From positions 1 to 30,004 of IMG/VR virus record IMGVR_UViG_2740892439_000007: a stretch of 30,004 nt of DNA; one strand, 5' to 3'. The translations under genes and the position numbers were made by a program. Within the stretch, counting starts at the first letter, position 1, and each line of letters opens with the position of its first letter. The notes under the pieces are model-generated. The model saw only the letters and a list, made by a program, of their open reading frames with translations, was not told the DNA's origin and did not search any database. Shown here piece after piece: positions 3,958-29,311 of this stretch. Source of the DNA: a virus (Duplodnaviria > Heunggongvirae > Uroviricota > Caudoviricetes).

Positions 3958-4200
3958 ATGAGTAACAAAATCGAAAACCCCGTAGTTCTCATTCACAAGC
4001 GTGAGAACCCCGACTCCTATGCGGTGGCGATCACCAATGGGAGTCACGATTATTACGATGGTCTGCTAATGGCCTCAGTGTCGCCTGATGAGGCAGACAA
4101 CTCTTTTGCCGTCTTCGCTATGGTTGGTTACTACATGGCTGCCGAAATTGAGAAGTTGCGGGCGCAGAGAGACGCATTAGCGGCGGAGAATGCAGCCTGA
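3958..4200 (+). CDS. Hypothetical protein (80 aa)
   Basis: ORF with ATG and gagaaaaacac leader. Confidence 0.55.
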   Translation: MSNKIENPVVLIHKRENPDSYAVAITNGSHDYYDGLLMASVSPDEADNSFAVFAMVGYYMAAEIEKLRAQRDALAAENAA

Positions 4201-4226
4201 AAGAATCTGAGCGAGCATTCGATGCG

Positions 4227-4412
4227 ATGTGTGCCGAGGAACACGGAGATAATTGGGTTAGCGAATTAACGGAGACTCCAGCCACCGATGCTTTTCTGGC
4301 TGAAGTACGTGCGCAGGGCGTGGAGATGTTTGCTGAGTGCGCATACACACTTGAACATCATGATCACGCAGTAGCTTTTGCCGCTGAGCTTCGTACAGGA
4401 AATAAACAGTGA
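4227..4412 (+). CDS. Hypothetical protein (61 aa)
   Basis: ORF with ATG start; stop overlaps the next gene start (GTGA). Confidence 0.45.
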   Translation: MCAEEHGDNWVSELTETPATDAFLAEVRAQGVEMFAECAYTLEHHDHAVAFAAELRTGNKQ

Positions 4413-5134
4413 ATGAGATTTACTACCTGACGTTACGTGAACGTTATTCACCAAAACCAGCGCCTAAATGCTCTGTTTGTGACGAGGAAATGTCAATACA
4501 GCGCATATCTGGAGCACATGTTGTTTATGCCTGTTCCGGTGAGGGTGATGACGGATATTTTAAGATAGGGCGTACTTTTGCAGACGAACATTATGAAAAA
4601 TCACGCGTAACAGTAGTTGATGATAGTGATCCCGATGTGATTGCACTGCTGGACGAACTGGATAAAAGACAGCAACACATCCGACGTCTTGAGCAGGAGA
4701 ACGTAGAGATGGCCCTAACGCTTGAGAAACTGCGTGTTGAGCTGGAGACCGTTAAACAGCGGGAAAAGGATCTGTTTATGGAAAATGTTCGACTTAAGTC
4801 AGGTATAGCAGGTCTGATACACCTCGGTATTCGATATGCGGATGTCGAAGTCATGAAAATAGCTGGTGATGCCCAGCTTTCTACTCCCTGTACTGACAGC
4901 ATCATAAACAGTATTGCATCAGGCGTTTTCACCAAAGAGGTCAGCATTATGAGAACAGTAGAAGTTCGCGCTGAAGATGTAACCCCAGGTGATGTGGTCA
5001 TAACATCTAAAGGCAAACGATGTGCGGTTAAATCTTTCTGGATGGAAGGTGACAAAGTGACTCTGTTCGGTACGGATGGTTCCGAAACGGATTATGACTA
5101 CGACGAATTACTTGTTGTTGAGAGAGCTATCTAA
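4409..5134 (+). CDS. Hypothetical protein (241 aa) with an N-terminal Cys cluster (CSVC...C) and a predicted coiled coil
   Basis: ORF from GTG overlapping the upstream stop; sequence features only, no family recognised. Confidence 0.6.
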   Translation: MNEIYYLTLRERYSPKPAPKCSVCDEEMSIQRISGAHVVYACSGEGDDGYFKIGRTFADEHYEKSRVTVVDDSDPDVIALLDELDKRQQHIRRLEQENVEMALTLEKLRVELETVKQREKDLFMENVRLKSGIAGLIHLGIRYADVEVMKIAGDAQLSTPCTDSIINSIASGVFTKEVSIMRTVEVRAEDVTPGDVVITSKGKRCAVKSFWMEGDKVTLFGTDGSETDYDYDELLVVERAI

Positions 5135-7359: not shown

Positions 7360-8460
7360 TCACACTGCGCGGAATGCGATTTCGCCAGGTATTACTTCAC
7401 CTTGCCAATACATTTGGGCAGCAACGCGATCTGCGAGGTCACGATAAATAGCCGTAAATTCGCTATCTGGACGACTAATAACGGTTGGTGTTCCGTTATC
7501 CAGATCTTCACGAAGAGAGATATGAAGTGGCATTTGGCCTAACAACTGCGTGTTGTATTTCTCGGCCAGTTTCTGTGCGCCACCGGTGCCAAAAATTGGC
7601 TCGTGATGACCGCAGTTACTGCAAATATGCACACTCATGTTTTCGACGATACCCAGTACCGGCACTTCGACTTTTTCGAACATCACAATGCCTTTCTTCG
7701 CATCGATCAGCGCGATGTCTTGCGGCGTAGTTACCACAACCGCACCAGTTACAGGAATGTTCTGCGCCAGCGTCAACTGAATATCACCAGTGCCCGGCGG
7801 CATATCGAGAACGAGATAGTCCAGATCAGGCCATAGAGTTTCCTGCAACATCTGCATCAGCGCCTTGCTGGCCATCGGTCCACGCCACACCATTGCATTG
7901 TCGTCGGTGACCAGATAACCAATAGAGTTGGTTGCCAGGCCATGAGACATGATAGGTGCCATGTGAGTACCGTCAGGTGAGGTTGGACGTTGGTTTTCCG
8001 CTCCCAGCATGGTTGGAATTGATGGACCATAGATATCGGCATCCAAAATACCAACTTTCGCACCTTCAGCAGCCAACGCCAGTGCCAGGTTCACCGCCGT
8101 GGAGGATTTACCCACGCCGCCCTTGCCTGAGCTGACGGCGATAATGTTCTTAACGCCATTAATGCCTGGTTGGTTTTTGACGCGCTTAAGCGTGGCAATG
8201 TTGTACGACAGCTTCCAGTCAATAGCCTTTGCGCCAGTGATACGGAGCAGATCACCACTACATTGCTCTTTCAGGTCTTCAAAAGGCTTATTCCACACGA
8301 AAGGCATGATTAGTTCGACATGCAGTGTGTCATCCATCAACGCAACATGGTGTAACGCTTTAAGCGTAGTCAGGTTGTGTTTCAGGGTTGGGTGCTGAAA
8401 ATTAGCCAGCGTACCGGCTACCATTGCTCTCAGGGCATCCGGCGATTTGGACTCGCTCAT
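7360..8460 (-). CDS. apbC: Fe-S cluster carrier ATPase ApbC/Mrp
   Basis: 366-aa product with P-loop SSGKGGVGKS and C-terminal CxxC; near-identical to E. coli Mrp as recalled. Confidence 0.95.
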   Translation of the reverse strand: MSESKSPDALRAMVAGTLANFQHPTLKHNLTTLKALHHVALMDDTLHVELIMPFVWNKPFEDLKEQCSGDLLRITGAKAIDWKLSYNIATLKRVKNQPGINGVKNIIAVSSGKGGVGKSSTAVNLALALAAEGAKVGILDADIYGPSIPTMLGAENQRPTSPDGTHMAPIMSHGLATNSIGYLVTDDNAMVWRGPMASKALMQMLQETLWPDLDYLVLDMPPGTGDIQLTLAQNIPVTGAVVVTTPQDIALIDAKKGIVMFEKVEVPVLGIVENMSVHICSNCGHHEPIFGTGGAQKLAEKYNTQLLGQMPLHISLREDLDNGTPTVISRPDSEFTAIYRDLADRVAAQMYWQGEVIPGEIAFRAV

Positions 8461-8617
8461 CCCGTCTCCTTTATTTTAATTTGCGCAATTGTCGCCTTGT
8501 AGTGTACTCCAGCTACGACATTTAATCATTTATGAGAAATGCTGTTATCACATGGCAGACATAAGGCCATTTTGTTACTATCAAGCCCCTTTTCACTACA
8601 AAGAAGTAATGCCTACT

Positions 8618-10651
8618 ATGACCCAAGTCGCGAAGAAAATTCTGGTGACGTGCGCGCTGCCGTACGCTAACGGCTCAATCCACCTCGGCCATATGCTGGA
8701 GCACATCCAGGCTGATGTCTGGGTTCGTTACCAGCGAATGCGCGGCCACGAGGTTAATTTCATCTGTGCCGACGATGCCCACGGTACGCCGATCATGCTG
8801 AAAGCACAGCAGCTTGGTATCACACCGGAGCAGATGATTGGCGAAATGAGTCAGGAACACCAGACTGATTTCGCAGGCTTTAACATCAGCTATGACAACT
8901 ATCACTCGACGCACAGCGAAGAGAACCGTCAGTTGTCTGAGCTTATCTATACTCGCCTGAAAGAGAACGGTTTTATTAAAAACCGCACTATCTCTCAGTT
9001 GTACGACCCGGAAAAAGGCATGTTCCTGCCGGATCGTTTTGTAAAAGGCACCTGCCCGAAATGTAAAGCGCCAGATCAATACGGCGATAACTGTGAAGTC
9101 TGCGGCGCGACCTACAGCCCGACTGAACTGATTGAGCCGAAATCGGTAGTTTCTGGCGCTACGCCGGTAATGCGTGATTCTGAACACTTCTTCTTTGATC
9201 TGCCCTCTTTCAGCGAAATGTTGCAGGCATGGACCCGCAGCGGCGCGTTGCAGGAGCAGGTGGCGAACAAAATGCAGGAATGGTTTGAATCCGGCCTGCA
9301 ACAGTGGGATATCTCCCGCGATGCGCCTTACTTCGGTTTTGAAATTCCGAACGCGCCGGGCAAATATTTCTACGTCTGGCTGGACGCGCCGATTGGCTAC
9401 ATGGGTTCCTTCAAGAATCTGTGCGACAAGCGCGGCGATACCACCAGCTTCGATGAATACTGGAAGAAAGACTCCACCGCCGAGCTGTACCACTTCATCG
9501 GTAAAGATATTGTTTACTTCCACAGCCTGTTCTGGCCTGCCATGCTGGAAGGCAGCAACTTCCGCAAGCCGACCAACCTGTTTGTTCACGGCTATGTGAC
9601 GGTGAACGGCGCGAAGATGTCCAAGTCTCGCGGCACCTTTATTAAAGCCAGCACCTGGCTGAATCATTTTGACGCCGACAGCCTGCGTTACTACTACGCT
9701 GCGAAACTCTCTTCGCGCATTGATGATATCGATCTCAACCTGGAGGATTTCGTTCAGCGCGTGAATGCCGATATCGTGAACAAAGTGGTTAACCTGGCCT
9801 CCCGTAATGCAGGCTTTATCAACAAGCGTTTTGACGGCGTGCTGGCAAGCGAACTGGCTGACCCGCAACTGTACAAAACCTTTACTGATGCCGCTGAAGT
9901 GATTGGCGAAGCATGGGAAAGCCGCGAATTTGGTAAAGCTATCCGTGAAATCATGGCATTGGCTGACCTGGCTAACCGCTATGTCGATGAACAGGCTCCG
10001 TGGGTGGTGGCGAAGCAGGAAGGACGCGATGCCGATCTGCAGGCGATTTGCTCTATGGGCATTAACCTGTTCCGCGTGCTGATGACGTACCTGAAGCCGG
10101 TACTGCCGAAACTGACTGAACGTGCAGAAGCATTCCTGAATACAGAACTGACCTGGGATGGTATCCAGCAACCGCTGCTGGGCCATAAAGTGAATCCGTT
10201 CAAGGCACTGTATAACCGTATCGATATGAAGCAGGTTGAAGCACTGGTGGAAGCATCTAAAGAAGAAGTGAAAGCAGCTGCCACGCCAGTAACTGGCCCG
10301 CTGGCAGATGATCCGATTCAGGAAACCATCACCTTTGATGACTTCGCCAAAGTTGACCTGCGCGTGGCGCTGATTGAAAACGCAGAGTTTGTAGAAGGTT
10401 CTGACAAACTGCTTCGCCTGACGCTGGATCTCGGTGGTGAAAAGCGTAATGTCTTCTCAGGCATCCGTTCCGCTTATCCAGATCCACAGGCACTGATTGG
10501 TCGTCACACCATTATGGTGGCTAACCTGGCACCACGTAAAATGCGCTTCGGTATCTCTGAAGGCATGGTGATGGCTGCTGGCCCTGGCGGGAAAGATATC
10601 TTCCTGTTAAGCCCGGATGTCGGTGCTAAACCTGGCCACCAGGTTAAGTAA
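8618..10651 (+). CDS. metG: Methionine--tRNA ligase
   Basis: [25 protein letters not shown] (HIGH motif), KMSKS, C-terminal tRNA-binding domain; near-identical to E. coli MetG as recalled; the track ORF start at 8489 is an upstream alternative codon. Confidence 0.97.
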
Positions 10652-12482: not shown

Positions 12483-12616
12483 CTTAATCAATCAGTTGAT
12501 AATGGCGGTCACAATTTGATTCTTTTCTATAAGAACCCGTTGATCGCCACTACTCCCCTCCCATACCAGCAATCACATCATTAAATATCAATAGGTTAAC
12601 GTTGTTTATACCAATA

Positions 12617-13330
12617 AGAAAACAACTAAATAACAGATCAACGAAACATCAACGCTTTCTCCCGATTTGGTCTAAAAAATTGACGTTATCACACATCACT
12701 TCTTATACCCGTAATTCTACGCAGCAGATAGCGCCACAGCGTCCAAATTTCACCACAAACGACTCAACACACTACCAACAAAAACACACGCTCAAAATCG
12801 CTCCCGTTGCGTTACACAACCATATAAACAACTTATTTTCAGGCATAACAAAACAACTAAATAACACATATGACATTCCCCAAAACAACCAACCTCTTTA
12901 TGGCAGGCTACCGAAAAGACCCACCTCTTCTCCCCAGGCTACCGGACAACCAACCTAACTTTCACAGGCAATCCGAAAACATTCATACGCGCGATACCCA
13001 CGACACGCCATTCCCCAAACAGCGAAGAAACACCAGAATCACTGAAACCCCAACGAAGCCTGTTACCGCAAGGATTCTCTCAATCCCAAAAGACACGAAA
13101 CATAACAATCACGGGAAACGCCATTACCCAATACACGAATAACTACAAAAGCCCTTCACGCACTCCAGACAAACAACTCAAACACAATAACGAAAGCAAT
13201 CGCCCACCTGCCATTACTCCATACACGGAGAAGAACAATCACCAAAACGACGAGAACACCCCATAGAAGAACCACCGCAAAACGAACGAAACCATTTACA
13301 CCGACAGAGAGAACAACACACCCAATTCAC
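12617..13330 (+). other. About 0.7-kb noncoding tract with strong A+C strand bias (roughly 75 percent A+C on the plus strand) and internal repeats
   Basis: Hand counts on two 60-nt lines gave 75 and 77 percent A+C; track ORFs here are low-complexity P/T/N/Q/H-rich translations. Confidence 0.7.
12888..12981 (+). repeat. Three tandem ~30-bp direct repeats (CCACCTCTT...CCAGGCTACCG family)
   Basis: Units at about 12888-12920, 12921-12950, 12951-12981; same family as 15811-15900. Confidence 0.6.
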
Positions 13331-13466
13331 CAACAGAAATAGTCGCCGTATAGAACATTCTGGAAGGAGTGAGCATTAACGCCTATAGAGAGGTTGAGAC
13401 AGATAAACACGAAGAAAACACAACATGTATAGCGAAGAAGCCAGGTATGTATAAGTGGGGAGGGAA

Positions 13467-13488
13467 GGAGGGGTGTCGCCTCCTTTTT
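13467..13488 (+). terminator. Hairpin plus T5 terminator candidate at the end of the AC-rich/purine-rich noncoding tract
   Basis: ggagg ggtgtcg cctcc followed by TTTTT. Confidence 0.45.
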
Positions 13489-13547
13489 CGTATTTATTCA
13501 ACTCCTGATTTTATCCCCCGTAACACCCCTACGGTCAGCCTTCGGTC

Positions 13548-13700
13548 CATACAGGGAAAAGGCTGCATCCCGCTACAGAAACGGCTGGGTTGCCTTCGGG
13601 GAACGGCTGGAGGTTTTCAGGGAAACGGTCGAGTTGCCTGTGTGGATTTCGGGAAAAGGCTCGATGCCGGTTCAGGAACGGTGGCGTACCGGTATAGCGA
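13548..13700 (+). repeat. Iteron array: six direct repeats with core GG(G)AAA(C/A)GG at about 22-bp periodicity
   Basis: Cores at about 13564, 13587, 13608, 13630, 13661, 13685. Confidence 0.65.
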
Positions 13701-13998
13701 GAGGGAGAGTTGCGGCTACCCACCTGTAATGTGCGGGAAGAAGAGAGGCGCTCACGTGCAGGCGGACTAACTTACCGTTGGACTCCCTCTGAATGCCCAA
13801 CTACAGCGTAATTGTGCCAGAGAGTCAGCGGGTCACAATCGATTTCAGTAGGTTTTCGGGGAGAGGATTATTCTGCCCACCAGCCACTTTCGGCCACCAA
13901 ATCAGAATAATGTAAAAAGTGTACTCGGTACTGAACCTGAAAACTCACTGCCAAAACCACATTCACCGGAATAAAATCCTTTTTCGCCTGTGCGTTAT

Positions 13999-14033
13999 TG
14001 CGATAATAACACCAACAAGAAAACATGTTGTTT
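13999..14033 (+). promoter_or_regulatory. Extended -10 promoter TGCGATAAT (13999-14007) plus operator AAACAT-G-TTGTTT (14021-14033)
   Basis: ttgcgataataacaccaacaagaaaaca is identical to 15440-15467. Confidence 0.65.
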
Positions 14034-15810: not shown

Positions 15811-15900
15811 TACCACCTGCTTTCCCGCAGGCTAAAAACACCCACCTCTTACCGCCAGGCTACCGAAGCACCCACCTGTTCCCGTCCGGCTACCGCAACT
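15811..15900 (+). repeat. Three exact-period 30-bp tandem direct repeats (cCCACCTnnTTnCCnnCaGGCTAcc...)
   Basis: Units at 15811-15840, 15841-15870, 15871-15900; related to 12888-12981. Confidence 0.65.
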
Positions 15901-16878: not shown

Positions 16879-17085
16879 ATATAACGCGTTTTAAGCGCGT
16901 TAATGTGTTAAGTAATGGGTATGTACTGGTAAGGATATAAAAGCGCGTCTATGGCGTTATTTTGGCGCTTATTTTTATGTTGTTGGAGTGAGTTAAAGAC
17001 AATAAAAAACGCGCTAATGATGGCGCGTTATGGTGGGAGTATTGGAAACGAAAAAAGCGCCCATAGTGGGCGCTCGATTTTATTT
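16879..17085. repeat. Array of four related GC-core hairpins, each preceded by an A-run (about 16879, 16936, 17002, 17057)
   Basis: Inverted repeats taacgcg/cgcgtta, aacgcgc/gcgcgtt and gcgccca/tgggcgc are exact; the second unit is imperfect; the last is followed by a T-rich tract. Confidence 0.5.
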
Positions 17086-17150
17086 GTGTAAACTGATTTT
17101 AAATCCCATTTCTACAAACGCTTTTAACATTAAAAATATATCAGCGTCGT

Positions 17151-17309
17151 TCACGTCTGCTTTTTTCGCTCCTGGTCGCTCAATAAGTCAATTTTGCGCG
17201 TCGTTTCATCTATAAGCTCGACTGAGCGCCCAGCGTAACCAGCGATCCCAGCGATGCGATTAACAAAATATTCATTGCGCACGTTAACGCCAGCGATAAG
17301 AATAAACAT
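17151..17309 (-). CDS. Small protein candidate (52 aa, hydrophobic N-terminus MFILIAGV, charged C-terminus)
   Basis: ATG with AAGGAG 7 nt upstream; bracketed by two identical hairpins (gcgcccatagtgggcgc at 17057 and 17327); the track's longer N-terminus overlaps the upstream terminator. Confidence 0.3.
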   Translation of the reverse strand: MFILIAGVNVRNEYFVNRIAGIAGYAGRSVELIDETTRKIDLLSDQERKKQT

Positions 17310-19418: not shown

Positions 19419-19510
19419 TTTTATACAGCGATTATTGCAAAGTAGAATTATAAATATCCAATAGTCTCAAACGATAAGTTTTCAACTGTAAATAGCAGAC
19501 GTGTTTCTCT

Positions 19511-19543
19511 AAAAGCTGTGCGGCAAAGGCGTTGTTGCCGCAC
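19511..19543 (-). terminator. Rho-independent terminator for CDS 19599-19877 (gtgcggcaa ... ttgccgcac plus T-run on the minus strand)
   Basis: 9-bp stem; AAAA on the plus strand at 19511-19514 gives TTTT after the hairpin in minus-strand sense. Confidence 0.7.
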
Positions 19544-19598
19544 TCTGTCTATTAGCTCTTCAAGTCTGGCAATTCTGAAATTGACTAAGAATCCAATA

Positions 19599-19877
19599 TT
19601 ACGGCAGTTTGCTTAGAATTTGCTCTAAATCTTCCTTTGTCATATTAGAGTTCTCATAGATGCGCATGATTTTCTCACGAGCCTTAGCAGAGACTCCAAC
19701 GGCAGATGAAACTTTGTCAAATTCAGCCATTGTCATCGCTTCCAGAATGGTATTGATAACTTCAGCCTTAGACATTTTGATGTTTTTTTCTTTTAGTTTC
19801 ATTTGAAACTTTCCAAGTTTGTCATTGGCCTTATCGGACAATGCCACCTGACAATAAGTTGTTTTCTTTTCGCTCAT
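19599..19877 (-). CDS. Hypothetical small protein (92 aa)
   Basis: Only 2 nt separate its start from the helicase stop codon. Confidence 0.6.
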   Translation of the reverse strand: MSEKKTTYCQVALSDKANDKLGKFQMKLKEKNIKMSKAEVINTILEAMTMAEFDKVSSAVGVSAKAREKIMRIYENSNMTKEDLEQILSKLP

Positions 19878-19879
19878 AA

Positions 19880-21438
19880 CTAATCTCGTTTCAGAACTCC
19901 AAAATCGAATGCGCCATCAATAGGCAATACACCTTCTGCAAAGCCAGGTGTGGTGTCGATGATGTGTTTTCGCTCATAAGAGTGAGACAACAGGTATTTG
20001 TTGCTAATGTCAATGAAATCAGTGATAAAACACACGTTTGCCTGATTCTTCTTGGCTCGTAAGCCACGACCGACACGCTGCCTCATTTCAACTTCTGCTT
20101 TCCCACCACCAGCCAGAATGACCGCACCAACGCTTGGCACATCAACACCGACATCCAGAATAGTCGAGCCTATTAAAACATCTATTTCGCCAGACGCTAA
20201 ACTGTTCAGCTTTGCTTGCCTTGTCGCCTGGTTTGATTCCCCATAGATGAAGTCAACTCTAAGGCCGGACTCCTTCATCATCTCCATCAGGATTTGCCCG
20301 TGGCGTTTAAGACGAACCAGAGTCATGCAATTGAGAGAATGTTGCTTATAGAGCAATGCTTCGCGCACAATGGCCTCGTTACGTCCCAAATTATACACGA
20401 TCCCCAACTGATAAGCCTTTTGGTAGGCTGTGCTCATACCTACTCTAAAATTGAGGTGTTTGTTGGCAAGTTCGGCTTGATTCTGGCCTCGTCTGGCTTG
20501 TAGGCAACTTTATGATAAAGGAAGTATGGTTTTGCCAGAATGCCTCTATCAATCAGGTACTTTTCCGTGACTTTTATTTCAATTCGCCCGGCCACTGCCA
20601 TCAGGCGCATGTTGGCTTCCGTCGAATCCTTCATGAACGGCGTGGCTGTAAGCGCCAGACGATAGTCTGCGTTCACACATAATCTGGCGATGTCATAGAA
20701 ATTAGAGCCTGAAGACTCATGCGCCTCTTCCAGAATAAGAAGAGAGACACTTGAAAGGAAGCGTTTCACCAACTCCCGACGTTTGAGGTGGTAGCTTTTC
20801 TTATCTGGTGTTGCATCGCGTGGTGGTTCTTCGAGGAAACTTGCAAGAGTTTGAACTGTAGCGACGTTGATATGTCGTGATACCTGGAACTCACCCGAGC
20901 CAATTACTCCAACCTTTTGGTCCTTTAACCACGGTTCGCCATTTTCGGCGCGGTAGTCGATGGATCTCTGGAAGTTTTCGGCCATTTGAAACATCAGAAC
21001 AGAGCGGGTTGTTAAAAATAATGTCATTCGACCGATACGTGCAGCTGCTTTGCAGGCAACGTTAGATTTCCCGCCACCAGTAGCGATCTGCGCAATCATC
21101 ATTCCCTCTCGAACCAGTGTTTCTACTGTCTGATCTTGGTACGCATAATCAGGGTTGTATGGAAATGGGTTAACCGCCGGATTTGGTTTACCCAGCGCCG
21201 GGGCTTTGTCTTTGCGGATATGAACACATTTGATGCCCGCCTTGTTCAAATTAGCCGCCACGGGCTTGGCAAAGCCAGCAGGGAACGAGTTTTTGCTCCA
21301 GTTGAACATTGTGCTTGTGCCCTTCCAGTCGCCAGCCTCGACTTCGTAGCTCAACATTTGCTGCACCAGTTGCTTTACCTTGTCATCTGCGCCAGAAATA
21401 AGCGCATTTACTGCGTTAGATACAATCCGAACAGTCAT
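19880..21438 (-). pseudogene. SF2 DExH-type helicase interrupted by a -1 frameshift (N-terminal part 20440-21438, C-terminal part 19880-20437)
   Basis: Motifs I (ATGGGKS), II (LILEEAHE) and III (LTATP) lie in the upstream ORF and motif VI (QRVGRGLR) in the downstream ORF; the frames change at a T4 run (plus-strand AAAA near 20447). Confidence 0.75.
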
Positions 21439-21520
21439 AAACCTCTTTCCTTAGTGCCTTTTGTATGTTATTTGGCTATTATAATAAGTAAGTGATTACT
21501 TAGTGGATTGTAGCAATAAA

Positions 21521-22201
21521 ATGGACGTAAAAATCACGATTTTGCAGGTTGATGTTGCCAACCTTCGCCCGAATACCTGGAACACCAATTCGGTTGGTGC
21601 GCAGAATTTCGAAAAACTGAAAGGTTCTATCGAAAAATTGGGCTTTTTTAAGCCAATTTTGGCTCGTGAGCTTGAAGATGGATTTTTTGAAATCCTCGGC
21701 GGCGAACATCGCTGGCGTGCTGCTATTGAGCAAGGAATTTCAACGGTTCCTGTGCTTTCTGTGGGCAAAATTAGCGATGTCGTGGCAAAACAGATGTCAC
21801 TGGTGGACAACGAGCGATACGGTGAAGACGACCAAATCGCATTGCAACGCTTCATTGAAGAAATTCAGTCAGAACTTGACTATCAACTGTCTGAAATCGC
21901 CCCGTATGACGACGAAATCTCGATGGTTTTAGCAAAAGAGGCGGCAATCGACCTTGAAGCACTGGAGGCGTTGTCTCGTGGCGGTGACGAGCCTGTCGAT
22001 ACCGACAAACGAGAGAAAACCGAACGTGTCGGTGCGGAACATCAGACCATGCGCTTCAAAGTAACCTTCGATGCGTCAGATCGCGTTGCAGAAACCATAA
22101 AAAACATCATCAAAGACCAGGCAATTAATACTGGCAATGAAATGGAAAACGCTGGTGAGGCTCTGGTGTGGCTGGTCGACTACTACAAGGAGCGTATGTA
22201 A
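21521..22201 (+). CDS. ParB-like nuclease (ParB/Srx N-terminal) domain protein 1
   Basis: FFEILGGEHRWRAA box; acidic C-terminal half; the track start at 21503 is GTG, first ATG is at 21521. Confidence 0.7.
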   Translation: MDVKITILQVDVANLRPNTWNTNSVGAQNFEKLKGSIEKLGFFKPILARELEDGFFEILGGEHRWRAAIEQGISTVPVLSVGKISDVVAKQMSLVDNERYGEDDQIALQRFIEEIQSELDYQLSEIAPYDDEISMVLAKEAAIDLEALEALSRGGDEPVDTDKREKTERVGAEHQTMRFKVTFDASDRVAETIKNIIKDQAINTGNEMENAGEALVWLVDYYKERM

Positions 22202-22869
22202 TGACCAAAAAGTTTGAAATCGTATATCGCGACCCGGCAGATCTTATTCCCTATGAGATGAATGCCAAAAAGCATGATGAACAGCAGATCCGAGATCTGG
22301 CCGCAGCCATTAAAAAGCGCGGATTTGACCAGCCAATTACGGTCGATAAGAACGACGTAATTATTACTGGCCACGGCCGCCGTGAGGCTGCAATTTTTGC
22401 TGGACTTGAGCGCGTACCGGTTATTGTTCGCGATGATCTCAGTGATGACGAGGTTCGTGCGAAGCGTCTTGAAGATAACCGACTTGCCAGCATTGATTAC
22501 GATGCAATTAAGCTACAAAAAGAGCTTGAGTCGCTTGTTCTGGACGATATCGAGGTTTTCGGCTTTGAAGAGCGTGAGTTGAATGTTCTCGTTGGCAGTA
22601 TGACAGAAGAAATGGACACCGACTCGCTAGTTATCGATCTTGGCGAAGAAACTAAACGACAGAAGGATGAACACACCGAGATCAGTCGTGAAGTTGCAGC
22701 GGAAGAAGTACGTGTTGTCGACGTATTGGGCTTTAAAACGCTCCCTGCTGGCTCTGCCATTGTTGTTGGTGATTTGCTTGCCCATATGGAAGAAATGACG
22801 GGAGAAAGCGGGGTAGACGCATTTGTGGCATATGCGGAGAAGATCTCTTCCGGGGAGATGGCTGCATGA
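22201..22869 (+). CDS. ParB-like nuclease domain protein 2
   Basis: PYEMNAKKH and IITGHGRREAA motifs; TAATG overlap with the upstream gene and AGGAG RBS. Confidence 0.7.
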   Translation: MTKKFEIVYRDPADLIPYEMNAKKHDEQQIRDLAAAIKKRGFDQPITVDKNDVIITGHGRREAAIFAGLERVPVIVRDDLSDDEVRAKRLEDNRLASIDYDAIKLQKELESLVLDDIEVFGFEERELNVLVGSMTEEMDTDSLVIDLGEETKRQKDEHTEISREVAAEEVRVVDVLGFKTLPAGSAIVVGDLLAHMEEMTGESGVDAFVAYAEKISSGEMAA

Positions 22870-23530
22870 GCAAATACATCATCAACGTATCGTTTCAGAC
22901 ACGCGTAAATAAAACCACGCGCACGTTGGAAATCGCTGAGTCGTTCGGGCTTGGCCTGGACGAAAAAGAGTGGACGCTTTACGACAATCTGGAGCTGGAA
23001 GTGAAGCAGGGCGATGTGGTGTACATCACCGGCCAATCCGGTTCCGGCAAATCCGTTGTGCTGCGCGAGTTGCAACGACAGATGAAGGATGAAGGGCTGT
23101 CTGTAGCTCCATCGATGATTTTACCTTCGATAATGAGGTTAACGTCATCGATCAGTTGGGCAAAACGACCAGCGATGCGCTTGGGTTGTTATCTATGGCA
23201 GGTCTGAACGATGCATATCTGTTTGTTCGCAAGCCTTCTGAAATGTCAGACGGTCAGAAATATCGTCTCAAGATTGCCAAACTGATTGAGTCAGGCGCTA
23301 AAGTGTGGGCTGCTGACGAGTTCGGTGCTGTTCTAGACCGTGTAACCGCTCAGGTTGTGGCATCTAACCTCCAGCGTGCCGCTCGAAAGGTTGGTGCGAC
23401 GGTAATGGTGGCGACGACTCACGAAGACCTGAAGAACGCGCTGCGCCCGGATATGCAGATCACCAAGCACTACAAAGAACGCGCGAAGGTGGAATATCAC
23501 AATGGTAGTCATGATGAGGTTCATTTATGA
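22866..23530 (+). pseudogene. ABC-type P-loop ATPase interrupted by a -1 frameshift
   Basis: Walker A (GQSGSGKS) lies in frame 1; signature-like MSDGQK, Walker B (VWAADEF) and H-loop (TTHED) lie in frame 2; the frames switch near GGG at 23094-23096. Confidence 0.7.
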
Positions 23531-24417
23531 CGGACATCATCATTAAACGCTACCGCCCTGAAGAGTTTCCGCGTCATCTGGACTTTCTGGAGCGAATGAC
23601 TGTCACAAAGGGAACTGTAGAGGACTGGCACGCTCTTAAGTCGCTTCACTACAAAACAGACGGCAAACCTTTCGCGCCAACTTACTATCGCTGCGAACTT
23701 GATGACCGTCTGGTGGGCGTCGTGGTTATGGCTTACCCGAAACTACTGTTGGCACCTCGCCACCGCATGTTTCCTAAGTTGAAACCAACCACTAATACCA
23801 CCGTGGCTAACCAGTACTGGGGTCGGTACGTGAATAACAACTTTGCGGTGATCAGTCGCTCAGTTGTGGATACTCAGTATCGTGGCGTAGGCGTCTCTTA
23901 TCGAATGATTAACCTGGTTAGCAGGATGCATGACCGGCCAATCATTGAGATCCAGTCCTCGATGAGTAAATACAATCCCTTCGCCATGAAAGCAGGGTTT
24001 AAGTTCATCCGCCCTGAGCGACCGAAGAGCTATGAAAGTGCACTGCGTGTATTCCAGCGCCATTTCCGTTCCGACCCGGGTGATAACGAGGCGATCGTCA
24101 AAGAGTTGTTCGCAATGAGCGAGTCTCGTCGTCGCCGTGCACTGCGTGATCTGGTGGCGGACTACCACAAGAACAGTTCCCTGGCAAAAGCTGGGCGGAA
24201 TCGTGGCACGACGATTCAGAACATTGCCGACAGTCTGGTGGACGAGGCCAGCATTGTGAAGCTGCTCAAGGACATTCACAACCTGAGCTTTACGTCTCCG
24301 TTGTATGGTGTGTATCGAAACCCTGACTTTGGTCGTCGACTGCCTGACACGCTGCCACTGCTGGCATTCGACAAACAACCTTTGGATAAACCGTTAGAAA
24401 TTGCTTTACCGGCATAA
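23527..24417 (+). CDS. GNAT-fold acyltransferase-like protein (296 aa) with a C-terminal extension of unknown function
   Basis: Motif-A-like VISRSVVDTQYRGVGVSYRMINLV; ATGA overlap with the upstream gene. Confidence 0.55.
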   Translation: MTDIIIKRYRPEEFPRHLDFLERMTVTKGTVEDWHALKSLHYKTDGKPFAPTYYRCELDDRLVGVVVMAYPKLLLAPRHRMFPKLKPTTNTTVANQYWGRYVNNNFAVISRSVVDTQYRGVGVSYRMINLVSRMHDRPIIEIQSSMSKYNPFAMKAGFKFIRPERPKSYESALRVFQRHFRSDPGDNEAIVKELFAMSESRRRRALRDLVADYHKNSSLAKAGRNRGTTIQNIADSLVDEASIVKLLKDIHNLSFTSPLYGVYRNPDFGRRLPDTLPLLAFDKQPLDKPLEIALPA

Positions 24418-24426
24418 GGATTTGCC

Positions 24427-24693
24427 ATGACGTTAACCGATAAACAAAAGGACATTATCAAAACGCTCAATCTCGGTTATGAGCGAGGTCATTTACTTGA
24501 TCTGGACGAATTGCTTGAAGTTTTGCCGTACAAGACAACCAAGCAAAGTATCCAGTTCTCAATTCGCGCTCTGATAAAAAAGGGGCTGGTGGAGAAAGGG
24601 CATACGCGCCAACGCAGTGACAATCGCTATCACCGCCGAACTCTTGGGTTAACCACTTTAGGTCGAGCCAAAGCGAAGTTACTGGTGATGTAA
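24427..24693 (+). CDS. Small basic protein, putative winged-helix DNA-binding regulator (88 aa)
   Basis: aagga RBS; basic C-terminus; last gene before the late-operon control region. Confidence 0.55.
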   Translation: MTLTDKQKDIIKTLNLGYERGHLLDLDELLEVLPYKTTKQSIQFSIRALIKKGLVEKGHTRQRSDNRYHRRTLGLTTLGRAKAKLLVM

Positions 24694-24720
24694 TCGGTCT
24701 GGGAGCTTATTTAAAGACCT

Positions 24721-24769
24721 GCTTCTGTATATATAAATAATAAGTAACTTATTAAATATATACGGAAGC
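24721..24769. promoter_or_regulatory. 49-bp AT-rich imperfect palindrome (gcttctgtatatat ... atatatacggaagc)
   Basis: 14-bp outer arms with one mismatch and an inner dyad (aataagt a acttatt). Confidence 0.5.
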
Positions 24770-24811
24770 AGGCTTAATAAGACATGCCCAGACCTAATTA
24801 AACACCCCAGA

Positions 24812-24849
24812 AAACAAGTTGGTTAGCAGATGCAGTAAACAAGTTGTTT
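24812..24849 (+). promoter_or_regulatory. Two operators (24812-24824, one mismatch; 24837-24849, perfect) with centres 25 bp apart, upstream of the late operon
   Basis: Same AAACAA-G-TTGTTT family, but different spacing from the early cassettes and no extended -10 between them. Confidence 0.6.
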
Positions 24850-24850
24850 T

Positions 24851-24880
24851 AGAGCGCATGGACGCGCTCTGTGTGTTTTA
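24851..24880 (+). terminator. Hairpin (agagcgc atggac gcgctct) plus T-rich tract immediately upstream of TerS
   Basis: 7-bp stem followed by gtgtgtttta; the TerS RBS overlaps the T-rich tail. Confidence 0.5.
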
Positions 24881-24889
24881 GAGGGATCT

Positions 24890-25522
24890 ATGACGGTCGA
24901 AAAAGACGAGGTAAAAACTCGCCTGACACCAGCGGAGTGGGCCGAAGCTGAAGCCAAATGGACGTCAGGCGAATATACACTCTCAAAGCTGGAGGAAGAG
25001 TACGGCATTCGTCGTGAAACACTCTCCAGACATTTCAAAAAGCGAGGATTAGAGAAAGGCGCGGACTCTGTTGGGAAGATGGTTCGTGAGTCTCTTAAAT
25101 CTGACGCAGAGCTTCGCGCTAAAGCCCGTGCGGAAAAGATAGAAGAACGTCGTACACGTTATGACGGCTGGGCGTATGCGTTGGGGCAGATGGTGATGGT
25201 CGAAGTCACTACGGCCAAACGTGAGAGTAAGCCTTTAGGGGCGATTGAGGATTCTCTCAAGAGCTTACAGAGAGCCAGTAATACCCTTGCAAAATGCTTT
25301 GAAGTTTCGTCCAAAGCATTGGGCATGGATCATGCGGAAAATGACGAGGAAGAAATTCCGAACCTGGTATTTGGTGAGCTTACACCTTCCCAGGTGGCGA
25401 AATTACGTCAGGAAGACGACGAGCCTGAAATCATCGATGACGAATTGCTTGAGACGTTGGAAGAAGAAGCTCTAAGCGAATTTGATGCGACAGATGATGG
25501 AAGTGAAGGGGAGGACGAATAA
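24890..25522 (+). CDS. Terminase small subunit candidate (210 aa)
   Basis: Position directly upstream of TerL; acidic C-terminal tail; stop overlaps the TerL start. Confidence 0.6.
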   Translation: MTVEKDEVKTRLTPAEWAEAEAKWTSGEYTLSKLEEEYGIRRETLSRHFKKRGLEKGADSVGKMVRESLKSDAELRAKARAEKIEERRTRYDGWAYALGQMVMVEVTTAKRESKPLGAIEDSLKSLQRASNTLAKCFEVSSKALGMDHAENDEEEIPNLVFGELTPSQVAKLRQEDDEPEIIDDELLETLEEEALSEFDATDDGSEGEDE

Positions 25523-26777
25523 TGGCAATCCCGTCCTCGCTCAGTCTTGTGCAACTGCATTCTGGACAGATGAAAGTCTTCCAGTCTCCGCATCGATTTA
25601 AAGTTGTTTGTGCTGGTCGACGCTGGGGAAAATCCCGGTTGTCGATCTCCACTATTATTCGTGCGGCGGCAAAGGAAAAAAAGCAAAGGGTCTGGTATGT
25701 CGCTCCTACTTACCAGATGGCTCGCCAGATTTTGTGGGACGATCTACAGGAAGTTCTGCCTCGTAAGTGGGTTAGGAAAAAGAACGACACCACGATGACA
25801 ATCGTGTTGAAGAACGGTTCGGAGATCGCCCTCAAAGGTGCTGATAAGCCTGACACTCTGCGCGGCGTAGCGTTGCATTTTGTAGTGCTTGATGAATTTC
25901 AGGATATGAAGCTGACACCTGGTACAAGGTGTTACGACCTACTCTTTCATCGACACGCGGCGGTGCACTGATCATTGGTACGCCAAAAGGCTTCTCGGAA
26001 TTTCACAAACTGTGGACTATAGGCCAGAACGTAGAGTTGCAAAGAAAGGGACAGTGGAAGAGCTGGCAGTTTGTAACTGCCGATTCTCCGTTTGTACCTA
26101 CGGCGGAAATTGAAGCTGCTAAGAACGATATGGACCCCAAATCGTTCGCTCAGGAGTACCTGGCCAGCTTTGAGAACATGTCCGGGCGCGTTTACTACCC
26201 GTTCGATCGTAACGTGCATGTAAAACCGCTTCAGTTCAACCCTCGGTTGCCTATATGGGTAGGGCAGGACTTCAACATTGACCCGATGTCTTCAGTAATT
26301 TTGCAACCTCAGCCAAATGGTGAGCTATGGGCAATTGATGAATTGGTGCTCTTTTCCTCTAACACGGCAGAAGTTTGTGATGAGCTTGAGAGACGCTTCT
26401 GGCGCTGGAAATCACAGGTAACGGTATTTCCAGATCCGGCAGGTGCTTATCGCCAACATGCTCGTGGGGAGTCTGACGTAGACATATTCAAAGAGAAGGG
26501 ATTCTTACGTGTCGATTATTCGAAAAAGCACCCGCCAATTGCGGATCGTGTTAATGCTGTTAACCGAATGCTGATGTCCGCATCTGGAGATATCCGGCTG
26601 TATATCGATCCGAAGTGCAAGCATTTGATTGATTCACTGGAAAAAGTTATCTACAAGCCTGGAACACGAGATATGGATAAGACAGGTGGCATTGAGCATA
26701 GTGCAGACGCATTGGGCTATCCAGTACATCGTAGGTATCCAGTCAAAAACCGTGTTATTCTTGGTGGTTCTCGATAG
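25522..26777 (+). pseudogene. Terminase large subunit interrupted by a -1 frameshift
   Basis: Walker A (VVCAGRRWGKS) and Walker B (HFVVLDEF) in the first ORF; the second ORF's frame is open from 25896 and encodes the nuclease half. Confidence 0.8.
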
Positions 26778-26803
26778 GTAAGTAATTATCTAAGGTTATT
26801 CAA

Positions 26804-28377
26804 ATGGAATTGAACGACAAACAAATTAAGGATCTGGTGGCGCGACGCCACCCGGAATACGAAAAGAAAAAAGAACATTGGGACTTCCTCGCCAGCACTT
26901 ACGCTGGCGGGCGTGGTTGGTTTACAGACAATATCTTTCGTTACTTTAAAGAGGGAGATCAGGAGTTTAAGGAGCGTGTTGAGCGTGCCTATCGCTTCAA
27001 CCACACTCGTGAGGTGGTAAACCTCATCAACAAATATCTCTTTAAAGAAGACATTAATAGAAATATCGAAGAGGCACCAGAGCAGATCCGCAATTTCTGG
27101 AAACGTGCGACTCGCCAGAATGCCTCTATTGACTCATTTATGGCCGCCATTGATTTGCAATCGTCAATCTACGGCCGTATCTGGGTTGTTGTTGATAGCA
27201 CAATGAGTGGTGATGTTGAGTCAGTAGCTGACGAGAAAAAGAAAGATGCTCGTGCCTACGCCTACTGGATTTCACCTCAGCAAATGCTGGATGTGGCATG
27301 GGACGACGACGGGAATATGTTATGGGCGTTAATTGTGGAAGTCGCTCGCGATGACGCAGATCCTTTTACTTCTACAGGTCAGGAATACCAACGTTATCGT
27401 CTGTGGACACAAAACGAGTGGTATCTGTTCCGTGAGGAAGTGAAGAAGGGGGCTGGTGGAGCAGGTCGTCGTCAGGCAAAAGTTATTTTAGAGGACAGCG
27501 GCGCGCATAATCTCGGCGTAGTTCCTGTGTTTCCTGTTGATTGTATTGGAGAAAGTGAATCACCGTATTTCAGCCCATCGTTGATCGATGATATCGCTTA
27601 TCTTGATCGTGCGGTTGCAAACTATCTGTCAAACCTTGATGCCATTATTCAGGATCAGACATTTAGCCAGTTGGCTATACCGGTACAGTCGCTTTTACCT
27701 GGTGATGAAAACCACACTAAAGTGCTTGAAATGGGCACAAAGCGAGTCTTCACCTACGATTCTGAAGGTGGAAACCAGCCGTTTTATCTGTCACCAGACC
27801 CGAAACAAGCTCAGATGATCATCACTACGATTAAGACGGTGATTAACGAAATCTACCATTCAGTTGGTGTAGCTGGTGAGCGAACGAAGCAGGACAACGC
27901 ACAGGGAATCGATAATTCATCTGGTGCCGCAAAAATGTATGACTTCCAGCGTGTAAATAGCTTGCTTGTCACAAAAGCAGAGCGTCTGGAAAGGCTGAAC
28001 GCCAAATCATGCTACTGGTTGCGAAATGGATGGGGGTAGATCTGGACGAAGACCACTCTTTAATTGCGTATCCAGAAAGTTTCGATATTCGTGGCCTTAC
28101 AGATGAATTTTCTGTTGCCGAGAAACTGTCATTACTTCAGGCACCGGACTCTGTACGTCGTCACCAGATGGAAATGCTTATTGAGAAGATTTTCCCGAAC
28201 ATTACTGAGGCGATGAAAAAGGAATTTGATAAAGATCTCTTGAATTTTCCTCCAAAAAATGATCTAAATACCCTTGAAAATAAGTCAGTACTTACTTATG
28301 ATCGTGGTGCAGCCCAAGAAAGCGGGCAAGATCAACCCCGAGGGAATGGGGACTCATCTACTCAAGAGAACGAGTGA
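26804..28377 (+). pseudogene. Portal protein (T7 gp8-like head-tail connector family) interrupted by a -1 frameshift
   Basis: GESESPYFSPSLIDDIAYLDRAVAN resembles the T7 gp8 segment GESYGRSYIEEYLGDLRSLE as recalled; the frames switch near AAA at about 28003. Confidence 0.65.
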
Positions 28378-28398
28378 TAAGTAACAAAAGGAATTTTT

Positions 28399-29286
28399 AT
28401 GAATCTGTGGCAAATGCTTTTGGCCCGTCGTGGTCTGATGGATGTCGCTGAAGCGCATGAGCGTGGAGGCGCTGGCGGTGTAGCTGCTGATAATGAGCAG
28501 AGTACACAAGATCCTGACAAACAGGGTGAACAAAAAGAGCAGCCGAAGGGCGATGACGAATACGCTGGCATGACTCAGGAAGAGTTACTGGCCGAACTTC
28601 GTAAAACCAAGAAAGCTGGTGCTGAACTGCTGAAGGAGAACATGAAGCGCAAAGAGAAAGAGCGCACATTGGCCGATCAGCTTGCTCAGTACGGTGATAT
28701 CGATCCGGCTCGTGCTCGCCAGCTTTTAGAAGCTGAACAGGCCGCAGAAAACGCACGTCGTGAGGCGGAGCAAGCTGAACTGGAGCGTCGTGGTGAGTTC
28801 GATGCTGTTAAAAAACAGATGATCGAAGCACACCAGGCAGAGCTGGCACAGCGTGACGAACGTTATGCAGCACTGGAAAGTGAAAACGCATCACTGAAAT
28901 CTCAATTAGTCGAGATGACCGTGGGCGCTTCCTTCAGTAACTCTCTCTTCCTACGTGACAAAGTTCTGATGACCCCGGCAAAAGCCCGCGTGATCTACGG
29001 TTCTCATTTTGAAGTGGGTGAAGACGGTAGCGTAGTGGGTTATGACAAACCGGCAGGTCACAAAGAACGAGCTGTTCTGGTTGACGGTGAAGGTAAGCCG
29101 TTGCCGTTTGAATCCGCGATTGAACGCATTGTGCGGGCAGATCCGGAAGCTGACGCATTGATGCGTAGCGAAGCCAAGCAGGGTGTAGGCTCACATTCCA
29201 AATCGACCTACACAATATCCCGACCGAAGAACAAGTCGACTATGGATAAGTTGGCCTCCGGTCTGGGGAAAATTGGACTTAAGTAA
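28399..29286 (+). CDS. Scaffolding protein candidate (295 aa)
   Basis: Position between portal and capsid; acidic, Ala/Glu-rich coiled-coil-like composition. Confidence 0.55.
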   Translation: MNLWQMLLARRGLMDVAEAHERGGAGGVAADNEQSTQDPDKQGEQKEQPKGDDEYAGMTQEELLAELRKTKKAGAELLKENMKRKEKERTLADQLAQYGDIDPARARQLLEAEQAAENARREAEQAELERRGEFDAVKKQMIEAHQAELAQRDERYAALESENASLKSQLVEMTVGASFSNSLFLRDKVLMTPAKARVIYGSHFEVGEDGSVVGYDKPAGHKERAVLVDGEGKPLPFESAIERIVRADPEADALMRSEAKQGVGSHSKSTYTISRPKNKSTMDKLASGLGKIGLK

Positions 29287-29311
29287 CATCTAAATCAAAG
29301 GGAATTGATAG

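Follow-up and report, generated by a model that had tools for sequence, protein, structure and literature searches.

One-base deletions that split the helicase, ABC ATPase, terminase and portal genes of an E. coli SSU5-like phage-plasmid sequence are probably sequencing or assembly errors

The window analysed here, a stretch of 30,004 nucleotides (positions 1 to 30,004 of IMG/VR virus record IMGVR_UViG_2740892439_000007), carries seven private one-base deletions, each of which frameshifts a gene, and these are probably the product of systematic error in sequencing or assembly. This reading is favoured because the deletions are uniform in kind, extend beyond the replication and packaging modules and are called differently in different assemblies, because the same sites recur in the draft genome of E. 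coli IS29, and because no other sign of decay accompanies them. The original prediction had left two alternatives side by side; that of systematic single-base deletion error is strengthened, while that of a decaying, defective prophage is disfavoured. The DEAD/DEAH-box helicase, the ABC-type ATPase, the terminase large subunit (TerL) and the portal protein are most likely intact in the real molecule.

Sequence similarity identifies positions 1-30004 as part of an E. coli phage-plasmid of the SSU5/pHCM2 type, the same kind of element as those of the Enterobacteriaceae described by Pfeifer et al. 2021 (PMC7969092). Nucleotide identity to the close E. coli relatives p13P484A-3 (NZ_CP019283.1), NZ_OZ501614.1 and the phages CMS-2020a, PhiR41_1 and Cyrano is 96-99.7%; it is 99.0-99.7% for E. 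coli plasmids, 96.6-98.7% for E. coli SSU5-like phages over 99% of positions 19500-29300, and 83% for SSU5 itself. Matches to SSU5-like E. coli plasmids are found in the left part of the window as well. Phage and plasmid modules stand in the same gene order as in the SSU5 group, with the helicase, two ParB_N genes, the ABC ATPase, TerL, the portal gene, a DUF6651 gene, the capsid gene and a metG and apbC cargo in full synteny. The sole difference from these relatives lies in the seven one-base deletions, the relatives' copies of the genes concerned being intact. A real IS3 insertion is present in the tape-measure gene of the close relative NZ_OZ501614.1. No RNA genes were found in the window by Rfam or tRNA scanning. 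The cargo genes are:

Positions 7360-8460, minus strand: apbC, plasmid-borne cargo
Positions 8618-10651: metG, plasmid-borne cargo

The original prediction spoke of host genes, but a host flank is lacking from the window: metG and apbC are plasmid cargo, and in 260 complete E. coli genomes all 439 matching places were located on plasmids and none on the chromosome. An integrated prophage with a host flank is ruled out by these plasmid matches throughout the window, and that framing was wrong, since the plasmids of its relatives show an SSU5-like phage-plasmid of this kind to be extrachromosomal. That metG and apbC are cargo and not host genes affects the reading of the element.

The four split genes of the replication and packaging modules, and the sites at which alignment places the missing base, are as follows:

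Positions 19880-21438, minus strand: DEAD/DEAH-box helicase, 1559 bp here versus 1560 bp (519 aa) in relatives
Positions 20475/20476: base missing from the helicase gene, plus strand GTTCGG^CTTGAT here, GTTCGGCCTTGAT in relatives
Positions 22866-23530, plus strand: ABC-type ATPase, 665 bp here versus 666 bp (221 aa) in relatives
Positions 23106/23107: base missing from the ABC ATPase gene, CTGTAG^CTCCAT here, CTGTAGCCTCCAT in relatives (GTCTCC in one)
Positions 25522-26777, plus strand: TerL, 1256 bp here versus 1257 bp (418 aa) in relatives
Positions 25910/25911: G missing from the TerL gene, TATGAA^GCTGAC here, TATGAAGGCTGAC in relatives
Positions 26804-28377, plus strand: portal protein, 1574 bp here versus 1575 bp (524 aa) in relatives
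Positions 27992-27994: G missing from the portal gene, TGGAAA^GGCTGA here, TGGAAAGGGCTGA in relatives

The ORF list, Pfam and tblastn bear out the prediction that each of these genes is split over two frames with its downstream part in the -1 frame. The helicase falls into ORFs of 332 aa (20440-21438) and 185 aa (19880-20437) with DEAD/ResIII and Helicase_C domains; the ABC ATPase into 22866-23207 and a frame-2 continuation to 23530, matching the N- and C-terminal parts of ABC_tran; TerL into 25522-25971 and 25929-26777, with Terminase_6N/3 and Terminase_6C; and the portal into 26804-28039 (411 aa) and 28009-28377 (122 aa). The corresponding tblastn frame switches are from -2 to -1, 3 to 2, 1 to 3 and 2 to 1, and a two-frame alignment of the halves with the closest relative's intact homologues gives 93-100% identity. 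Comparison with homologous phages, which had been proposed as a check, found the window exactly one base short in each of the four genes, and one base added per gene at the alignment-supported site gives products of 519, 221, 418 and 524 aa, none with an internal stop.

In the helicase the alignment resolves the deletion as GGCCTT>GGCTT on the plus strand (AAGGCC>AAGCC on the coding strand), in the ABC ATPase as TAGCCTCC>TAGCTCC, in TerL as AAGGCT>AAGCT and in the portal as AAAGGGCT>AAAGGCT. The helicase base is present in 23 of 23 independent relatives and in 19 of 19 IMG/VR contigs, its deletion being common only to a Logan contig of SRR1599274 among the sequences compared. The ABC ATPase site is intact in 17/17 relatives and 23/23 IMG/VR contigs, and here too the Logan contig has the deletion. 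For TerL the site is intact in all 24 relatives, and tblastn found the gene intact in 99 loci. The portal was intact in 100 loci by tblastn and at its site in all 37 independent relatives, while the deletion is common to the Logan contig and IS29; a variable-gap pattern search of IMG/VR counted 26 of 27 contigs as intact, the exception being IS29.

Most of these sites differ from the runs first named as the places of repair. The alignment moves the helicase site from a TTTT near 20447, the ABC ATPase site from a GGG near 23095 and the portal site from an AAA near 28003, whereas the CC or GG near 25915 named for TerL was close. A base added at the run originally named (ABC ATPase, TerL and portal were tried) likewise reopens the ORF; restoration of an ORF is therefore unable by itself to place a deletion.

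The geometry of the split genes, with a downstream part in the -1 frame and short overlaps, is also that of programmed -1 ribosomal frameshifting or transcriptional slippage, by which full-length proteins would be made from the split genes. This reading has next to no probability and was discarded, since no X XXY YYZ slippery heptamer lies at any junction and between 83 and 100 loci per gene encode the homologue in a single frame, the two-frame layout being absent from essentially all relatives. The seven genes hit are, moreover, of unrelated function.

The remaining three deletions lie in the left part of the window:

Positions 4195/4196: fifth private deletion, GCAGCCCTG>GCAGCCTG, frameshift in a 151-aa hypothetical gene (3958-4413)
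Positions 12365/12366: sixth private deletion, GAGCCTGA>GAGCTGA, frameshift over the final ~35 codons of a hypothetical gene of 396 aa (start 11283)
Positions 17160-17166: seventh private deletion, T7>T6, frameshift in a 76-aa gene on the minus strand (17083-17309)

Contrary to what had been supposed, the left-flank genes are thus not all intact, although the long metG, apbC and DUF4942 genes are. The sites are intact in 6/6, 8/8 and 16/16 relatives, respectively, and the deletion at 17160 is also found in the Logan contig. A look-up of the frameshifted product of the gene hit at 12365, made with the Logan contig in view, found no record of it. Two marker proteins taken to be private proved common. 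With three of seven deletions outside it, the damage is not confined to the predicted region of replication and packaging genes, and the presence of four within its 8.5 kb does not amount to significant clustering (binomial p = 0.11); clustering in these modules was rejected on both grounds. Since three left-flank genes are also broken, there is nothing peculiar to the replication and packaging modules.

Compared with 7 to 59 relatives, the private indels of the window are these seven, all one-base deletions in runs of 2-7 nt, and the same comparison revealed no private insertions or multi-base indels, so that the bias is wholly in one direction. With IS29 and the Logan contig set aside, every relative in the comparison, up to 37 per site, is intact at the seven sites. 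Six of the deletions are losses of a G from AGG(G)CY, T7>T6 being the remaining one. In each of the six G/C deletions a G-run is followed by C and then by Y, a class which makes up 15.8% of G/C runs of at least 2. The enrichment has a post-hoc p of ~1.5e-5, the motif having been defined after the data were seen, and only 6 of 379 sites of the class are affected. Natural slippage favours long runs. The G/C runs hit here are only 2-3 nt, which counts against it.

The Logan assembly of SRR1599274 permits a comparison of two assemblies. Contig SRR1599274_162 has 0 mismatches to the window over 13,201 bp, which suggests that both derive from the same plasmid or isolate, and still two G-run lengths differ, at 25072 and 25910. 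At the latter the Logan contig has GG and TerL is intact at 418 aa. The former served as a control site:

Positions 25070-25073: run of GGG intact here and in 21 relatives, shortened to GG in the Logan assembly

The change of GGG to GG at 25072 splits, in the Logan assembly, a 210-aa DNA-binding gene in the position of the small terminase (24890-25522) that is intact in the window. A further private deletion of the Logan contig, GAAGGCTGAC>GAAGCTGAC, lies in the tape-measure gene, so that one 10-mer, GAAGGCTGAC, has been struck at two loci, in TerL in the window and in the tape-measure gene in the Logan contig. The retrieved Logan stretch covers five of the window's deletions, of which four recur and that in TerL does not, and has two extra deletions of its own. 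The private deletions of the same type in the Logan contig suggest that the window and the Logan assembly may be built on the same or a similar set of reads. If the two sets of reads came from different technologies, the common deletions would argue for real ones. No mention of SRR1599274 or of E. coli IS29 was found in the literature.

Over 14 kb the IS29 draft, which differs from the window at 113 of 4,710 positions, has two private indels and no more, and these coincide exactly with the deletions of the window in TerL and portal. That so different a sequence is hit at the very same places fits an error determined by the site. Exact look-up of the 185-aa helicase and 122-aa portal fragments returned many contigs, nearly all of which carry the intact allele and are artefacts of contig ends or scaffold Ns, and left only SRR1599274 (helicase and portal) and IS29 (portal) as true carriers. 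Exact searches for the portal and TerL deletion alleles in IMG/VR found IS29 only, and the portal allele had no match in an exact search of genome and metagenome contigs.

One may alternatively read the deletions as genuine pseudogenisation, in which a defective, plasmid-only derivative has lost three small genes as well as the helicase, ABC ATPase, TerL and portal by real one-base deletions, some of the alleles (TerL, portal) being shared with IS29 by descent or recombination. Where decay is real, the lesions are of several sorts, with stop codons and larger deletions beside IS insertions. The frameshifts are indeed present in the deposited sequence, most recur in the retrieved Logan stretch, and the IS29 draft carrying the TerL and portal alleles was deposited independently. 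As deposited, the window resembles defective or hybrid phage-plasmids and cryptic prophages in having interrupted packaging and replication genes; defective phage-plasmids are known to exist (PMC12977533), and the IS3 insertion in NZ_OZ501614.1 is an instance of true damage to a close relative. Unlike that case, every lesion in the window is a one-base deletion, in one narrow context, and the assemblies disagree on the genes hit in spite of 0 SNPs between them. Nonsense mutations, IS elements and larger deletions are all absent, the frames stay open 3' of each deletion and the repaired ORFs are without stops. The striking of one 10-mer at two loci, and the intact state of the closest relative (99.7% identical) and of more than 100 others, speak in the same direction, and the helicase and the genes of the partition region would be expected to be under selection even in a plasmid-only element. 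We therefore consider decay unlikely.

The enrichment of the AGG(G)CY class, the identical sites in the divergent IS29 plasmid and the difference in allele between two assemblies of the same plasmid could also reflect a motif-directed biological loss of G at AAGG(G)CTGA-like sites, by a mutational hotspot, nuclease- or methylase-linked repair or culture heterogeneity, with alleles varying by sub-clone and lineage. Were this so, packaging and replication genes would be knocked out repeatedly in lineages independent of each other, those of IS29 and of the window's plasmid, leading to domestication to a plasmid-only lifestyle. It is highly improbable, since so few sites of the motif class are affected, no complete high-quality relative compared carries any such allele, and a technical artefact accounts for the same facts more simply. 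Nor are we aware of any process by which -1 deletions would arise at a motif of this kind.

Under the preferred reading of sequencing or assembly error, the window would be part of an unremarkable SSU5-like phage-plasmid of E. coli, taken from a draft assembly, and its split genes would stem from single-base undercalls in short runs, arising in the sequencing chemistry or at the consensus step. Some contexts may give a deletion in a large share of reads, and the consensus could then tip either way with assembler and run. A close parallel is found in the 'high-frequency indel' (HFI) errors of the Ion Torrent PGM reported by Bragg et al. 2013 (PMC3623719). Most of these errors are single-base; the strand-asymmetric ones consist chiefly of C/G deletions, and 82% of such deletions lie in runs of 2-3. 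With a frequency of roughly one per 1-2 kb of reference, HFI errors result in frameshifts in assemblies. They are inconsistent between runs, with 82-87% of sites run-unique, yet common beyond chance. The window's deletions are likewise single-base, deletion-dominated, in C/G runs of 2-3 nt and one per few kb, vary between assemblies yet recur beyond chance, and frameshift genes. In contrast to the errors of Bragg et al., the coincidence of sites between window and IS29 is stronger, and the AGG(G)CY context is not described there. The comparisons themselves show that the deletions are there, of what kind they are, how they are spread and that the assemblies disagree; we infer the read-level cause and the platform, which may be a flow-based chemistry, e.g. 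Ion Torrent or 454. Both IS29 deletions coincide with those of the window, which is above the run-unique expectation of Bragg et al. and weighs against an error.

An annotator who trusted the sequence as it stands would call it a defective phage-plasmid without helicase, terminase and portal, and surveys of phage-plasmid 'decay' or inducibility would miscount it. The main value of the observation is in quality control, since recognising the combined signature (single G bases lost from AGG(G)CY, assemblies of one sample at variance, a further draft hit as well) guards against false pseudogene calls. Two further sequences, the draft of IS29 and the Logan contig of SRR1599274, would by this signature bear errors of the same class. 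A split helicase is also seen in two other drafts, one of them with private one-base deletions in other contexts.

The helicase, ABC ATPase, TerL and portal genes are truly split in the deposited sequence, and the ORF list gives for each of them a pair of ORFs that adjoin or overlap each other:

20440-21438 / 19880-20437, - strand, helicase ORF pair
22866-23207 / 23156-23530, ABC ATPase ORF pair
25522-25971 / 25929-26777, TerL ORF pair
26804-28039 / 28009-28377, portal ORF pair

In Pfam searches one helicase half carried DEAD/ResIII and the other Helicase_C, complementary parts of a single protein, while the ABC ATPase halves were the N-terminal and C-terminal ends of ABC_tran and the TerL halves contained Terminase_6N/Terminase_3 and Terminase_6C. 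The Pfam search of the portal halves gave no match; by alignment they match annotated portal proteins. With intact homologues as tblastn queries a single frame switch per gene was observed, to the -1 frame in all four. The ORF pairs, Pfam halves and frame switches thereby bear out the original prediction that four genes are split with the downstream part in the -1 frame.

Each of these genes is one uninterrupted ORF in every annotated relative (1560, 666, 1257 and 1575 bp, respectively), and the window is one base shorter in each. Alignment to relatives places the missing bases as follows (+ strand):

20475/6, helicase deletion, GGCCTT > GGCTT
23106/7, ABC ATPase deletion, TAGCCTCC > TAGCTCC
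25910/1, TerL deletion, AAGGCT > AAGCT
27992-4, portal deletion, AAAGGGCT > AAAGGCT

Inserting a base at these sites yields 519, 221, 418 and 524 aa without a stop. The runs originally named for the missing bases were 10-30 nt off for three of the four genes. Since a base added at those runs also reopens the ORF in the ABC ATPase, TerL and portal, the sequence alone is unable to place the sites.

A census against relatives (a panel of 7 at first, later up to 59) showed that the private variants of the window are seven one-base deletions, and the same panel revealed no private insertions or longer indels. The view that the deletions are a trait of the replication and packaging region is not sustained, since three more break other genes:

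4195, deletion, GCAGCCCTG > GCAGCCTG, frameshifts a 151-aa gene
12365, deletion, GAGCCTGA > GAGCTGA, frameshifts a 396-aa gene
17160, deletion, T7 > T6, frameshifts a 76-aa gene

The region 19880-28377, which makes up 28% of the window, holds 4/7 deletions, a clustering that is not significant (p = 0.11); the helicase, ABC ATPase, TerL and portal genes are simply among the longest targets.

All six G/C events lose one G from a G-run of 2-3 nt followed by C and a pyrimidine, when read in G-strand orientation (CAGGGCT, CAGGCT, AAGGCC, GAGGCT, AAGGCT and AAGGGCT). Among G/C runs of at least 2 nt, 15.8% belong to this class, and the probability of six of six falling in it is ~1.5e-5, a post hoc value since the motif was defined after seeing the data. 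The deletions touch only 6 of the 379 sites of the class. Natural slippage acts poorly on short runs. A biological deletion process directed by this motif is considered highly improbable.

Exact look-up of the truncated products matched only the Logan assembly of SRR1599274 (contig 162, 59,632 bp; L009). Over 13,201 bp this contig has 0 mismatches to the window, and two G-run lengths differ. The Logan contig has GG at 25910, leaving TerL intact there (418 aa), and at 25072 (L009 8269) it has GG versus GGG in the window, which splits a 210-aa gene upstream of TerL that is unbroken in the window. Past the window's right end (L009 20594), the Logan tape-measure gene has its own one-base G deletion, GAAGGCTGAC > GAAGCTGAC, and GAAGGCTGAC is a 10-mer common to this deletion and the window's TerL site. 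That two assemblies with zero SNPs have different genes broken by like deletions points to an ambiguous run-length signal in the reads. The sequence identity, together with the Logan contig's own deletions of like type, suggests a shared or similar read set behind both.

Independent relatives are intact at every site: 6/6 at 4195, 8/8 at 12365, 16/16 at 17160, 23/23 at 20475, 17/17 at 23106, 24/24 at 25910 and 37/37 at 27992. Counted over every fetched locus, 99 have TerL in a single frame and 100 the portal. IMG/VR contigs with identical flanks are intact in 19/19 cases for the helicase, 23/23 for the ABC ATPase and 26/27 for the portal, the exception being E. coli IS29. The portal deletion allele was not found in genome and metagenome collections, and the affected genes are free of stop codons, IS elements and larger deletions.

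The IS29 draft (GCA_000529975.1, contig CBWH010000055.1 = IMGVR_UViG_2617271087_000005), an unrelated draft, carries a plasmid with differences at 113/4,710 positions. Its private indels number exactly two in 14 kb, and both are the same deletions that the window has in TerL and the portal:

CBWH010000055.1 646 and 2728, IS29 deletions in TerL and portal

Site-determined error would explain this coincidence. Shared descent of the two alleles would require them to be old, which fits poorly with the fully open downstream frames and with the intact NZ_OZ501614.1, the closest complete relative, at 99.7% identity. The IS29 phage-plasmid is probably mis-annotated with split terminase and portal genes. 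The helicase is likewise split in a further draft-derived SSU5-like contig (IMGVR_UViG_2617270940_000005), to which two one-base deletions at 2557 and 8394 (T5>T4 and GG>G) are private; the window is therefore not the only draft sequence of this family with frameshift errors.

Between the alternatives first offered, a decaying prophage and systematic single-base deletion errors, the latter is favoured because the assemblies disagree, the context of G loss is uniform and relatives are intact. The split genes thus probably reflect such errors, made when an ordinary SSU5-like phage-plasmid was sequenced or assembled as a draft; genuine pseudogenisation is unlikely. Programmed frameshifting is effectively excluded. 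The window's deletions match the Ion Torrent 'high-frequency indel' error class of Bragg et al. (PMC3623719). Such errors are mostly single-base, occur at ~1 per 1-2 kb of reference and lead to frameshifts in assemblies; among the strand-asymmetric ones C/G deletions dominate, with 82% in runs of 2-3 (PMC3623719). Their sites are mostly run-specific, yet common to runs above chance (PMC3623719); that both IS29 sites coincide with the window's is stronger than this mostly run-specific behaviour. The split genes are of low biological interest and useful as a quality flag.

A prophage with host flanks was rejected, as the whole window matches SSU5-like phages and plasmids; SSU5 is a reference phage-plasmid (PMC7969092). 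The stretch 19500-29300 shows 96.6-98.7% identity to the E. coli SSU5-like phages CMS-2020a, PhiR41_1 and Cyrano and ~80-83% to Klebsiella SSU5-like phages and Salmonella phage SSU5. It matches 797 plasmids in PLSDB, and 439/439 matching places in 260 complete E. coli genomes are plasmid. The left 19.5 kb, metG and apbC included, matches the same replicons, so these two, probably what was meant by host genes beside the prophage, are plasmid-borne.

Several minor observations were made. At 35530-41366 of NZ_OZ501614.1 the tape-measure gene is disrupted by an IS3-family transposase, a genuinely inactivating lesion in this family that contrasts with the one-base deletions. The phage-plasmid's apbC (mrp) and metG at 7360-10651, both full-length, duplicate a chromosomal E. 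coli locus. On a 203-kb contig of another public draft (GCA_030198605.1), the metG side of plasmid type runs on into chromosomal neighbours, a fimbrial operon and rcnB, which could stem from chimeric assembly or from recombination via metG/apbC homology. About 1.5 kb at ~12500-14000 has no annotated CDS in relatives, many indel differences among them and no Rfam match, and its A-over-T skew is strong (0.27) at 13001-14000; this stretch may be non-coding, with a part in regulation or replication. Just downstream of a small ORF annotated 'ABC transporter' in relatives, a tandem array at 15813-15895 (30-bp units, 2.8 copies, 75-85% match, consensus CCACCTCTTACCGCCAGGCTAC...) may be iteron-like. 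The block 21503-24417 is conserved: a pair of adjoining genes with ParB_N domains is grouped with the ABC-type ATPase and a gene for 296 aa, the last annotated in some records as an ATPase fused to an acyl-CoA N-acyltransferase. In the Klebsiella relative pJN2-26, an additional gene of 183 aa is inserted after the ABC gene.
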